The notes: generated by a model not told the origin, from the sequence alone. Shown: positions 40,067 through 46,063, numbered from the stretch's first letter. The stretch: DNA of 64,000 nucleotides from Escherichia coli (GCF_036507355.1 NZ_AP027877.1), one strand, 5' to 3'. Numbers and translations are program-made.

Positions 40067-41119
40067 ATGGGGATCATCGTACGAATTCTTAAAGCTAACC
40101 ATGGCGATTGCATTTTGGTGAGCCATGAAAGCGGTTCAGGCACTCTCAACTTGCTCATTGATGGGGGACCTGCGACGACATTCAGGTATGGCATTAGGCA
40201 GCGCTATTCTGGAGCATTGAGTAACGCTCTCGATGATCTGAAAGGAAAGGGGCAAAACATTGATCTGGCTATCCTGACCCACATTGATGATGATCACATA
40301 AATGGTTTTATCAAGGCATTCGAAAGTCCAAACTATCTGCGTCAGCTGGTTAAATCGATCTGGTTCAATTCTTCGAGGTTAATCACACATCATTTTAATG
40401 TGCCTGAAATTTGTGAAAATAATATTTTCTTGCAGGAAGTTTCCCCTGAAACTAGCGTTAAACAGGGGCAAGAACTTGAGGCATTACTTGATGAAATCGG
40501 ATGTGTGCGAGCACCGCTCATTATGGCAGGGCAAATCTACAAAGTAGGCCCGATTACTTTAACAGCACTTTCACCTGAACGAAGACAACTCGAACAGCTT
40601 TTGCATAAGTGGCCAACGGAAGTAAGTTCAGCTGACACTTCTTCATATGAGAATGATTATCACCGTTCATTGGACGAAATTTGGGCAGATGATAGATTTG
40701 AATCTGACTCATCTATTTATAATGGAAGCTCAATTGCATTTTTACTGGAAACAGATGACAAAAAAATGCTTTTTTTAGGAGACGCCAATGACCAAGTTGT
40801 TACAAAAAATTTAAGAGCATTGGGCTATAGCGAAACAAACAAGTTGAAGCTGGATCTGGTTAAAGTTTCGCATCATGGTAGTCAATACAACACAAGCAAC
40901 GAATTTCTTTCAATACTAGATTCTCCATGCTTTGTTATTTCAACCAATGGTTCGAAGCATGGTCTTCCTAATAAAAGGACTATTGCAAGGATCTTAAAGG
41001 AAACAGATGGTGATATTTATTTTAATTACAGCAATGTAATTACTCCGCTGCTTTTAGCGCATGAAGCTGAGAGCTATTCTTCTCGTCTAAAAGTGCTAGG
41101 TGATGAGATTAAATTCTAA
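40067..41119 (+). CDS. Metallo-beta-lactamase-fold hydrolase (candidate nuclease/effector); gene 1 of the candidate defence operon
   Basis: MBL motifs HGDC, THIDDDH, SHHGS; 350 aa; AT-rich. Confidence 0.7.
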   Translation: MGIIVRILKANHGDCILVSHESGSGTLNLLIDGGPATTFRYGIRQRYSGALSNALDDLKGKGQNIDLAILTHIDDDHINGFIKAFESPNYLRQLVKSIWFNSSRLITHHFNVPEICENNIFLQEVSPETSVKQGQELEALLDEIGCVRAPLIMAGQIYKVGPITLTALSPERRQLEQLLHKWPTEVSSADTSSYENDYHRSLDEIWADDRFESDSSIYNGSSIAFLLETDDKKMLFLGDANDQVVTKNLRALGYSETNKLKLDLVKVSHHGSQYNTSNEFLSILDSPCFVISTNGSKHGLPNKRTIARILKETDGDIYFNYSNVITPLLLAHEAESYSSRLKVLGDEIKF

Positions 41120-42419
41120 CATGACAGTTTACGAAATAATGCAGTCCCACTGCGTCATGGTTAATGGTGGCAGTGGTGTGCTAGTTAATGCAATGACACT
41201 GGATTACACATATGTACTGACTGCATACCATGTTATTCGTGACACTCTCGATAATATCGAAGTTACCGATCACAGTGGCAATAAACTTACAGTATTAGCT
41301 GTGCTCCTATATCCAGATATTAAATATTTGAACGAATCCCATAATGATTTCGCAATTTTAAAAATTGAATATCAACCAGAAGTTGCACAAAGTTGTTTTA
41401 CTGCTTCGACGTTGCCTCCTCGTGCTGAGCTTACATTAGTAGGATTTCCAAACACTGAAAGAAGGAGTTCGGATCCTATAAAATATTATGATGGACATAT
41501 GACTAGCGTGGTCGATGAGCTTGTCATTTTCACTGTTGATGGTGTACCAGGCTTAGCCACGATAAAGGGGATGTCAGGTGGAGGTGTATATCACATAGTT
41601 GGTAGAAATACATTTCTTGTTGGTGTTGAGTTTAGGATGGATGGCACTGAAGAGGAACAACAGTTTGGCCGAGTGCAATGCCATAGCTTAGCAAAGTTTG
41701 ATGAAATAATAAGAGCATACGATAGCGCACCGATGATTCCTGCCCATTTGGAATGCTTTTCTCGAATACAAGACAAAATATTTAAATTTAATGTTATTGA
41801 TCAAAACAATGTTCGTAATCTTAAAGATGCGTTAGAAGCCCTTTCCAGATCACTTATAGCTAGTGGGATGTCTCCGCCTTACAAAATCATGGGGCAATAT
41901 GGATTACAGCTTTTGATGGATCCCAAAACTCCTAATGAGCTCAGTAATAAAGAGTTATGGATTTCTTATTTTGAATTTTTAGTTATTTGCTCTGTGATAG
42001 ATAATGTTGGAATTGTGGATGATGCATATATAAAAAGCTTGGAGCGAAAGCGGCGGCTATTATATACCAGTAATGGTGCGAACTGGATTAGCCATTTGGA
42101 AGAACTACTCAAAACGGCACGAAAACTTTTAGATAAGGATGGCACTTTAATCGTTGCATCACCTGATGCTGCTGCAAGTGTCTTGCCTCCGAACTTTCGA
42201 CTTAAAAACGTAATAAGTAATATAGCGGTAGTGCCAAACCAGGGGCCGTTTGCTATCGATGAAGTTGAAAGTTCTATTTATACAAGCTTCAAATTAACTC
42301 ATCTGGAGGGACTCCGCAAAAGCTGCGTAATAGACCGTGAGGATGAATATCTAGTAGTTCCAGCAGGTGTACCACAATTGCAGTTATTTAAGGAGAAGCT
42401 TAATGAAATTATTAAGTAA
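41103..42419 (+). CDS. Trypsin-like (S1/chymotrypsin-fold) serine protease domain fused to a C-terminal helical domain of about 260 aa; start ambiguous (ATG at 41103 or 41121)
   Basis: Putative catalytic triad contexts LTAYHV (His), NDFAIL (Asp), GMSGGGVY (Ser); overlaps or abuts the upstream stop. Confidence 0.7.
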   Translation: MRLNSNMTVYEIMQSHCVMVNGGSGVLVNAMTLDYTYVLTAYHVIRDTLDNIEVTDHSGNKLTVLAVLLYPDIKYLNESHNDFAILKIEYQPEVAQSCFTASTLPPRAELTLVGFPNTERRSSDPIKYYDGHMTSVVDELVIFTVDGVPGLATIKGMSGGGVYHIVGRNTFLVGVEFRMDGTEEEQQFGRVQCHSLAKFDEIIRAYDSAPMIPAHLECFSRIQDKIFKFNVIDQNNVRNLKDALEALSRSLIASGMSPPYKIMGQYGLQLLMDPKTPNELSNKELWISYFEFLVICSVIDNVGIVDDAYIKSLERKRRLLYTSNGANWISHLEELLKTARKLLDKDGTLIVASPDAAASVLPPNFRLKNVISNIAVVPNQGPFAIDEVESSIYTSFKLTHLEGLRKSCVIDREDEYLVVPAGVPQLQLFKEKLNEIIK

Positions 42420-45900: not shown

Positions 45901-46063
45901 AAGTATATGTGTTCAATTTGATAAACAAATTATTATTTCAACGCATGATGAAAACTTCTTTGCCTTACTCCAGCGCAAAATCCCTGCCCAAATTTTTGGA
46001 TCTAAATTCTTGCAATTGGAAAAGTTTGGTGTAGTCGTCCCGGTGCAACCCTTTGTGAACTAA
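42932..46063 (+). CDS. Rad50/SbcC-like SMC-fold ABC ATPase with long coiled coils and a central CxxC hook (1043 aa)
   Basis: N-terminal Walker A (IYAPNGFGKSSFYDAVEWAI); C-terminal signature-like FSAAQ, Walker B VVMIDDP, D-loop SMD, H-loop IISTHD; long Glu/Lys/Leu-rich heptad-like middle; CPLC at residue about 524. Confidence 0.8.
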   Translation: MKIKKVEIEAFRAYKSRSDGTFDFTNDGDVAANFVAIYAPNGFGKSSFYDAVEWAITNHMARLGGEYNKANYENAAKITKDDNVGQEILRNKYVDKNIRTKVVVSTTRPLPFERKLPKVRSNGRDLRFGDNSQRENDFFRQVILSQDEIDRFLREAKPQERYTKFMESFGGDIEIARKELSVLINDNKIELNNLNKKRESILEQLKQPIDSSIFQKFNSIAVELNKLGENIQLPDESFSSQDEYALNVSLISRRHELDSSRLTNNRTVEALEDRLLKISETELHVRSLAEQNLHLAKLVKGVADADRYQSLLDSYEKCAEDQKTTHMHMTRIIEVIDCLDDFLKIESHLLELSTSQKIISEERTKICAQLAGFETTINQLNKELKAVDDRVAILRKTVDNAGQVYLELANNRARVSNLTQQISKKEVSIKIDKSRLGELNRELTRLSELNINATSLSNGNLGTLLLEPTKVEQLTRCYAEFDVIESQIQAVHVTQKALSEQMELHERLIAIGIDYLSVRPSSICPLCTAPHPSADGLLDKIKGRNLLSELSEENSKQLLFFSTRQKEILQSIQDITQCAIDSKAQLIINLNKELSETDERLTLAGRDIYSIEAELKTLEKRTTELESLVWALSHDELVSRIEKEIGELSIKSSKLLEGKALITPQVEMLNESLKEKDSAQQKIASELEGIFSGNIYITVYKYLNENAISSSSLKSHTEKRKLEIEAEIIKCKTTIEFLTEQCAVLQQKMLSDGMWVDFVQLKLQKESLEISVARSQSVINTFYESLSNLIIIRPEYSLEKVKELIAAKVQDCHLRTKEFDRLSNNINLLIELMSSFKPYIKHTALQKDLMAEEMLIKQRERVDTTLTAERDAIVDSLKLLINNFFYEDLINSIYKKIDPHPAFKKVEFKADFDSDKPGLNIVVSDEVGEQISPILYFSAAQTNILSLSVFLASALHAKDDEGNPINVVMIDDPIQSMDSINILSTIDLLRSICVQFDKQIIISTHDENFFALLQRKIPAQIFGSKFLQLEKFGVVVPVQPFVN

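Follow-up and report, generated by a model that had tools for sequence, protein, structure and literature searches.

A 64,000-nucleotide (nt) stretch of Escherichia coli DNA (GCF_036507355.1, NZ_AP027877.1), hereafter the window, carries at positions 40067-46063 an operon that almost certainly belongs to Lamassu, the family of defence systems also named ABC three-component (ABC-3C) systems. Open reading frame (ORF) calling on the window returned four intact, tightly coupled ORFs on the plus strand, which encode a metallo-beta-lactamase (MBL) fold protein, a protease fusion (LmuA), a small protein (LmuC) and a long SMC/Rad50-like ATPase (LmuB). A 1-nt gap (TAA-C-ATG) separates gene 1 from gene 2, and the next two junctions are overlaps, of 17 nt (genes 2 and 3) and 11 nt (genes 3 and 4), all as proposed, together with the ORF coordinates, in a first-pass annotation that a model had made from the sequence alone. 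A GTG at 41100 is also open as an alternative start for lmuA, as is one at 42367 for lmuC, and the RefSeq start of the protease gene at 41178 lies 19 codons 3' of the ATG at 41121 that profile and orthologues support. Ribosome-binding sites were found about 12 nt 5' of the ATG at 40067 (AAGGAAG) and 5' of lmuC (AAGGAG). The GC content of the four genes is 0.34-0.40, against about 0.50-0.52 in the flanks, and their placement by the annotation in an AT-rich island between an integrase and tRNA-Phe was confirmed. The motifs it had named were likewise present, HIDDDH in the MBL protein, GMSGG in the protease and the P-loop PNGFGKS in the ATPase, and in the ATPase we further located a Walker B motif (VVMIDD), a signature motif (SAAQ) and CPLC.

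For family assignment we combined a PADLOC-DB profile scan with NCBIfam, Pfam and the literature. The MBL protein matched the LmuA profile PDLC03854 over nearly its full length (2.2e-128) and the protease fusion a second LmuA profile, PDLC03855, over its full length (1.6e-142), while gene 3 matched the LmuC profile PDLC03873 over its full length (3.5e-50) and gene 4 the LmuB profile PDLC03865 from position 1 to 1006 of 1007 (E = 0, 1036 bits). With E-values of 1e-50 to 0, and with the gene order kept in 18 loci from other species wherever the DNA was present, the operon stands far beyond chance. The RefSeq names of genes 2 and 3 are 'ABC-three component system protein' and 'middle component 1', and three papers, including Haudiquet et al., equate ABC-3C, LmuACB and DdmABC as one family. 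Since all four proteins match Lamassu models and the literature equates ABC-3C with Lamassu, this is not an undescribed system; judged by its profile matches, the locus is an E. coli member of a named, known defence family that standard defence-finding hidden Markov models (HMMs) would detect.

These results sort the claims of the first-pass annotation. It correctly recognised a horizontally acquired defence operon in which an MBL hydrolase and a serine-protease fusion accompany an SMC/Rad50-like ABC ATPase, and the ABC-3C likeness that it proposed agrees with the Pfam matches (CTD4, 1.3e-59, and MComp1) and the RefSeq names. Its view that the operon was undescribed and did not match Lamassu was mistaken, given the nearly full-length matches to LmuA, LmuA, LmuC and LmuB models; the PADLOC and Pfam matches place the proteins in an already characterised defence family, the outcome that the annotation itself had set against its proposal. 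The statement that no experimental characterisation was known is out of date, because Lamassu has phage-defence data, mutants and cryo-electron microscopy (cryo-EM) structures, and the MBL-protease pair has been dissected biochemically in Hachiman and AVAST. Wadjet, Septu, Gabija, PARIS and AbiL were rejected on HMM ranking and gene content, in keeping with the misfit to Wadjet, Septu and Gabija that the annotation had noted. JetABCD, PtuAB, GajAB and AriAB were not best hits in the scan, where AriA (3.7e-07) and PtuA (1.6e-03) appeared only as secondary matches, against E = 0 for LmuB, and AbiL likewise only as a marginal secondary match.

Haudiquet et al. 2025 divide Lamassu into short and long clades, the long LmuB having a Walker B motif of the form hhhhDD and a single CxxC hook, and they report that long systems carry larger LmuC proteins and larger LmuA C-terminal domains (CTDs). 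In the window LmuB, which is 1043 residues (aa) long, VVMIDD lies at residue 967 and CPLC occurs once (524-527). Because of this Walker B motif and single central CPLC, the operon is classified by its sequence as a long Lamassu, of the Hydrolase-Protease subtype. LmuA variants in the family include both hydrolases and proteases, and its defence requires the ATPase, the effector and lmuC and proceeds by abortive infection. Haudiquet et al. name one long system, and only one, as experimentally validated, the Hydrolase-Protease Lamassu of Bacillus cereus B4077 (Millman et al. 2022); the preprint text of Millman et al. has no strain name for the tested Hydrolase-Protease system, the attribution to B4077 being that of Haudiquet et al. 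The window operon resembles the B4077 system in its gene set (a hydrolase-like protein, a protease-LmuA, LmuC and a long LmuB) and the long systems at large in its Walker B motif, its single CxxC and its nearly full-length matches to dedicated PADLOC models. It differs from B4077, with which it was compared by gene set, in host and lineage, as its copy lies in a gammaproteobacterial clade, and its LmuB is longer than the published long-LmuB mean of about 800 aa. It also resembles the CTD4 plus Middle Component 1 class of ABC-3C (Krishnan, Burroughs, Aravind 2020), sharing CTD4, MComp1 and an SMC-like ATPase; there is no difference in kind, ABC-3C being a second name for the Lamassu family.

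Table 1. Features of the operon and of the surrounding island in the window.
Feature	Position	Strand	Detail
Gene 1, MBL protein	40067-41119	+	350 aa
Metal-binding motif H72-I-D-D-D-H77 (codons)	40280..40297	+	motif scan and alignment
Predicted gating loop 1, residues about 121-140	40427..40486	+	predicted cut T129|S130 at 40451-40456
Predicted gating loop 2, residues about 181-200	40607..40666	+	predicted cut T191|S192 at 40637-40642
Gene 2, LmuA	41121-42419	+	432 aa from the ATG backed by PADLOC profile and orthologues
LmuA protease domain, chymotrypsin fold	41169-41627	+	about residues 17-169; triad H37/D76/S152
LmuA ABC-3C CTD4 domain	41679-42332	+	residues 187-404; Pfam
Gene 3, LmuC	42403-42942	+	179 aa from ATG; start choice backed by PADLOC profile and orthologue alignments
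Gene 4, LmuB	42932-46063	+	1043 aa
LmuB central CPLC zinc-hook motif	44501-44512	+	residues 524-527; midpoint of the 1043 aa
Candidate sigma-70 promoter	39953..39982	+	TTGAAA, 18-nt spacer, AAAAAT; AT-rich leader upstream of gene 1; consensus scan only
Inverted repeat	46093..46132	+	14 bp perfect, 12-nt loop; 30 nt past the lmuB stop
Tyrosine (P4-type) integrase	38366..39553	-	one edge of cargo slot
tRNA-Phe (pheV)	46900..46975	-	integration site; other edge of cargo slot
DUF262 protein	27759-29636	-	defence-related; PADLOC HEC-05, 5e-231
WYL-domain regulator	30068-30781	-	defence-related
JukA-like protein	30884-31633	-	PADLOC 6e-72; only a weak MsyB-like match in NCBIfam

[quoted passage not shown] Its catalytic triad is invariant in 72 sequences, and its AlphaFold2 (AF2) model, with a mean confidence (pLDDT) of 87.6, has the Esp, Spl and granzyme proteases as fold matches in the Protein Data Bank (PDB); a match to a designed 'Pizza' beta-propeller in the PDB sequence search was dismissed as a low-complexity or repeat artefact. 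LmuC, described in the first-pass annotation as a small Cys protein, has cysteines at residues 26, 36, 39 and 41, matches ABC-3C Middle Component 1 in Pfam (PF20289, 2.3e-08) and is encoded between lmuA and lmuB, as it is in other species. LmuB, in which Pfam found AAA_23 and SMC_N, has head halves at about residues 1-200 and 900-1043 with long coiled-coil arms between them. Across 13 orthologues the motifs PNGFGKSS, SQDE, CPLC, FSAAQ, IDDP and STHD are conserved, while the arms are poorly conserved and low in proline and glycine. PDB sequence searches with the proteins found no close relative with a solved structure, LmuB matching Rad50 only, and remotely (E = 9e-4).

Relatives of the protease-CTD4 protein numbered at least 222 (E <= 1e-5 among the 8000 candidates scored), and the named ones were mostly Gammaproteobacteria, among them Acinetobacter, Vibrio, Photobacterium, Shewanella, Pseudomonas and Aeromonas; identity to the Acinetobacter, Vibrio, Photobacterium and Pseudomonas copies was 55-73%. 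Wherever the DNA was present, the 18 other-species loci kept the order MBL-LmuA-LmuC-LmuB with abutting or overlapping genes, the flanking genes differed between genera, and no fifth conserved gene emerged, as no neighbour was common to more than two of these loci. The kept order and the lack of a further conserved gene indicated that the four-gene cassette is the mobile unit. Of the 5426 complete E. coli genomes only 3 carried it, and its sequence was 99.7-100% identical between three unrelated isolates. In two of the orthologous loci lmuB is cut down, to 743 aa in an Acinetobacter bereziniae metagenome-assembled genome (L005, 9810-12038) and to 433 aa in Pseudomonas cedrina (L011, 9806-11104); both genes lie well inside their contigs and may reflect pseudogenisation or assembly error. 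Between the integrase and the operon lies an 82-aa hypothetical ORF (WP_001096211.1, 39617-39865, plus strand) that has no PADLOC match; it was rejected as part of the cassette, tblastn giving no hits to it in the 18 other-species loci.

This distribution bears on whether the genes might instead form a housekeeping module, either for DNA repair in the manner of SbcCD/Rad50-Mre11 or for competence, as the RefSeq name of the MBL gene suggests. LmuB has the head, coiled-coil and zinc-hook architecture of Rad50/SbcC at an SbcC-like length and the remote Rad50 match given above, the MBL domain resembles the ComEC nuclease domain, and Haudiquet et al. regard long Lamassu as derived from SbcCD, with LmuC proposed to stem from the SbcD C-terminal domain. 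The similarity to SbcCD is remote, however, and the window operon has no Mre11/SbcD phosphoesterase nuclease and no ComEC membrane domains, its effectors being a protease and a predicted MBL nuclease. The best HMM matches are moreover specific to defence, and the cassette is rare in E. coli, sits in a low-GC island slot beside an integrase and changes its neighbours from genus to genus. A repair or competence role is thus barely credible and is effectively refuted by rarity, island setting and HMM matches.

Between the integrase and tRNA-Phe the DNA has the character of a variable cargo slot, here occupied by the Lamassu operon. Beyond the tRNA lie yqgA and speC, which identify the site as the pheV locus of E. 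coli. Some 200 E. coli genomes have the edges of the slot (39554-39830 and 46371-46900), conserved at about 91-95%, either at pheV or at pheU. Among the loci compared (L002 and L003 included) the cargo was an anti-phage dCTP deaminase in one strain; a second strain had a LysR regulator with an alcohol dehydrogenase and a restriction endonuclease, and many others a short hypothetical gene. The low GC and rarity of the cassette, the defence genes found in this slot elsewhere and the HEC-05 and JukA matches in the same island count in favour of a defence role.

Whether such cargo is active in its present host is a separate matter, as the cassette could be an inactive or silenced passenger of this strain despite its intact ORFs. 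AT-rich DNA is commonly silenced in E. coli by H-NS, and the 34-40% GC of the operon suggests recent transfer from a low-GC gammaproteobacterium; the promoter match is weak, and the shortened lmuB genes in some orthologous loci point the same way. Against a passenger, the four ORFs are intact, the catalytic residues are conserved, the coupled start and stop codons are preserved, and the cassette is nearly identical in the three unrelated isolates. We therefore consider silencing or inactivity improbable. At the 3' end, an inverted repeat past lmuB had an RNA-folding z-score of -4.84, none of 200 shuffles folding as well, and it is probably a 3' stem-loop or terminator, judging from its sequence, though it has no T-run after it.

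The name 'ComEC/Rec2 family competence protein', which RefSeq gives to the MBL gene, is misleading for a defence pro-nuclease. From its sequence and structure model, we predict that the 350-aa product is a caged ComEC-like DNase effector and the 'hydrolase' partner of LmuA. In addition to its LmuA profile it cross-hit the RTasMBL (the DRT MBL model) and Avs1a profiles of PADLOC, matched Avs1a in NCBIfam at 1.4e-59, below the model cut-off, and contained Pfam Lactamase_B. Its AF2 model was of high confidence (pLDDT 94.2, pTM 0.93) and in Foldseek had as top PDB match the ComEC beta-lactamase-like domain 9ic4 (E = 1.2e-13), a domain shorter by about 80 aa; the PDB sequence search likewise returned ComEC only (7e-4). 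In 142 sequences, residues D76, H77, N101, N219, D239, H269 and H270 were invariant and H72 and D74 nearly so.

Tuck et al. (Science 2025) and Huang et al. 2025 have shown that an MBL protein encoded just 5' of a protease fusion in Hachiman and AVAST is a caged DNase, in which two inserted loops block the active site until the partner protease cuts each of them once, after an isoleucine in one group and within a KSS motif in another, and in which mutation of either loop cut site abolishes defence. Both studies list Lamassu/ABC-3C among the carriers of the module, and the model has been extended to Lamassu, the experiments being in Hachiman and AVAST; Huang et al. use the term 'ABC-3C', never 'Lamassu', and report no validation of that association. 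In the AF2 model of the window protein exactly two stretches were of low confidence, residues 121-140 (minimum at 129-131) and 181-200, and when the protein was aligned with 140 full-length representatives, one small motif was conspicuous at 129-130 and another at 191-192. Neither T129 nor T191 varies among the 18 Lamassu-linked orthologues. The published sites could be projected onto this alignment by way of one relative (P0257) with a VKSS motif in each loop; its gene precedes those for a Trypsin_2-HamA fusion and a helicase and so belongs to a Hachiman-MBL operon. D81, K135SS and K198SS of P0257 reproduce the spacing of the published D73, K127SS and K190SS after an 8-residue N-terminal offset, and because of this identical spacing T129|S130 and T191|S192 are the positions of the window protein that line up with the published cuts S128|S129 and S191|S192. 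Alignment, covariation and structure model together predict that the partner protease cuts the window MBL protein at these two positions.

The covariation was examined in 141 relatives of the MBL pro-nuclease (alignment P0121-P0270) by a shuffle test without phylogenetic correction. The residue preceding the cut (P1) was the same at positions 129 and 191 in most sequences (T/T 53, I/I 15, M/M 6, K/K 4, L/L 4, V/V 3), and the P2 residue was often matched between the loops as well. When small register shifts were allowed, 111 of the 141 sequences repeated the loop-1 P1 residue in loop 2; shuffling gave a mean of 48, and none of 2000 shuffles attained 111; excluding the threonine types, recurrence was still 48 of 75, against 18 by shuffling. 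Among the nearest relatives threonine was the most frequent residue at P1; the two types described by Tuck et al. and Huang et al. do not include it. The P1 types seen were T, I, M, K, L, V, S and Y, with switching even within CTD4-type Lamassu, and the type was not tied to the sensor: a layout of CTD4, MComp1 and an ATPase of about 1040 aa occurred with Thr (L030) and with Ile (L031), Val was found in a likely short Lamassu (L032), Met or Leu with STAND/TPR sensors (L027, L029) and Ser in Hachiman (L023). In the few pairs available, partner proteases of the Thr type had G[MH]SGGG without a short insertion, and those of the Ile, Val, Met, Leu and Ser types G[FLN]SGSG with one, a hint, to be taken as a lead only, that the protease motif co-varies with P1 type. 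The covariation suggests a matched, evolving cleavage 'address'. In a wider proposal, which we hold tentatively and rate just short of an even chance, an SMC-like sensor would here drive a proteolytic cascade rather than directly switch on a fused nuclease, the protease would have a hitherto undescribed specificity for Thr at P1, and the two loops of trypsin-MBL pro-nucleases would carry a matched, fast-evolving P1 (often also P2) address that insulates co-resident modules. If true, the matched P1 address would keep co-resident protease-nuclease modules from cross-activation.

The same evidence bears on a different division of labour, in which the protease itself would be the killing effector, acting on host or phage proteins, and the MBL protein would have an accessory or regulatory part as a hydrolase, of a nucleotide signal for instance. 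LmuA N-terminal domains in Lamassu are usually effectors themselves, and MBL folds include cyclic-nucleotide phosphodiesterases, of which Apyc1 was among the weaker fold hits of the window protein (ranks 35 and 47). Its best fold match is nonetheless the ComEC nuclease domain, and in Hachiman and AVAST the MBL protein is a DNase and the protease specific, other proteins remaining uncut. Two loops with co-varying P1 residues are, moreover, hard to explain unless the MBL protein is a substrate of the protease. Killing by the protease itself is accordingly a poor candidate, which we regard as quite improbable.

Based on these comparisons, we propose that the operon works by a proteolytic cascade that ends in the MBL nuclease. 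By analogy with the cryo-EM structures of short Lamassu, an LmuB dimer joined by its CPLC hook would, with LmuC, hold LmuA by its CTD4 and keep the protease inactive. Aberrant DNA from phage or plasmid replication, such as ends and hairpins, would bind the LmuB-LmuC heads, and the ATP cycle would then free LmuA, again as in short Lamassu, for which structures of 2025 depict sequestration of LmuA, binding of DNA ends, release of LmuA and formation of a tetramer. The freed LmuA would oligomerise by its CTD, activating the trypsin-like protease, which would cut both gating loops of the MBL protein, with T129|S130 and T191|S192 as predicted sites, as has been shown for the Hachiman and AVAST relatives. 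The uncaged ComEC-like DNase would finally degrade DNA indiscriminately, leading to cell death or arrest and abortive infection, an outcome shown for relatives in other systems. We consider it likely that the operon is a long Hydrolase-Protease Lamassu with anti-phage or anti-plasmid function, carried as cargo of the pheV island and acting by this mechanism; the full chain of steps, taken by itself, is moderately probable.

Several points weigh against this interpretation. All steps up to and including loop cleavage rest on analogy, and the DNA-end trigger is carried over to long Lamassu from short Lamassu. The solved Lamassu complexes are short types with other CTD and LmuC families (CTD7/MC3, CTD12), and for long Lamassu Haudiquet et al. 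predict that LmuA and LmuC lie near the LmuB heads, not the hook, so the geometry of sequestration may differ. The Foldseek matches of the full LmuA model were dominated by serine proteases and do not bear on a likeness of CTD4 to the solved LmuA CTDs of short Lamassu. The P1 residues published for trypsin-MBL modules are only Ile and Ser, against the Thr predicted here, and the shuffles behind the covariation take no account of phylogeny, even if the independent P1 types are many. Finally, the sequence evidence for the candidate promoter is weak, promoter and terminator consensus scans of the region having found no more sites than in shuffled sequence.

The nature of the trigger also raises the question of the target, as the operon might act mainly on plasmids or other extrachromosomal DNA, like DdmABC of Vibrio cholerae, with phage defence secondary. 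DdmABC, itself a Lamassu, eliminates plasmids besides defending against phage, overexpressed trypsin-MBL systems were toxic without phage, from which Huang et al. suggest a possible anti-plasmid role, and the sensor recognises DNA structures, not phage proteins. The sole tested Hydrolase-Protease Lamassu is, however, listed among validated antiphage systems (Haudiquet et al.), and phage and plasmid roles are compatible, the sequence not discriminating between them. A mainly anti-plasmid function is a reasonable alternative that we nevertheless consider unlikely.

The proposed combination of a Lamassu sensor with a protease-gated nuclease differs from each of the better-studied systems. The short Lamassu LmuACB/DdmABC with a Cap4 nuclease (Salmonella, V. 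cholerae, Bacillus cellulasensis) share with it the SMC-like LmuB, LmuC and an LmuA effector with a CTD, and for them DNA-end sensing, release, oligomerisation and abortive infection have been published. In the window operon, by contrast, the predicted effector arm is a protease acting on a fourth protein instead of a nuclease fused to LmuA, the CTD and LmuC are of the CTD4/MC1 type instead of CTD7/MC3 or CTD12, and LmuB is about 400 aa longer and has DD instead of DQ in its Walker B motif. With the modules of Hachiman (HamMAB) and AVAST type 1 (Avs1a) it shares an MBL gene directly 5' of an N-terminal protease fusion and a ComEC-like MBL fold; the model of its MBL protein has the two low-confidence stretches, whose motifs align to the mapped sites, and the protein gave the Avs1a and RTasMBL cross-hits. 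Where these modules have a helicase or a STAND NTPase as sensor, the window operon has an SMC-like ATPase with LmuC, and its predicted P1 residue is Thr and not Ile or Ser; activation by a Lamassu sensor has only been modelled in the literature.

Taken alone, the locus is a routine call of the DefenseFinder or PADLOC type, which corrects the RefSeq name of the MBL gene. Its value is that of a native E. coli example, in a tractable host, of the least-studied Lamassu branch, the long Hydrolase-Protease systems, and its remaining interest lies in the mechanism of that subtype, which we infer. It bears on whether protease effectors use the release-and-oligomerise switch of nuclease effectors, a point left open by the Zhang-lab and Gruber-lab authors, and on whether an SMC-like sensor, too, works through the gated pro-nuclease mechanism of Hachiman and AVAST. 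The predicted cut sites T129|S130 and T191|S192, together with the catalytic residues, offer ready-made mutants for both questions.

The wider island begins after glcB and glcA at an IS3 transposase, at about 26.5 kb (26512-27324, plus strand), and carries, besides the defence-related genes of Table 1, a second integrase and a DUF927 helicase. No second tRNA-Phe 3' end (attR) and no long direct repeats delimiting the island were found in the window, and the far boundary of this composite two-integrase island is thus unmarked by a recognisable repeat. Beside tRNA-Phe there are four copies of ACCGTAG (46702-46708, 46712-46718, 46723-46729 and 46847-46853), three of them spaced 10-11 nt apart; within the attL region they may serve as arm-type sites to which the integrase or an excisionase binds. 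Outside the island, between glcB and glcA, Rfam detected the small RNA C0719 (291 bits, 23819-24040, minus strand), a core-genome feature unrelated to the operon.

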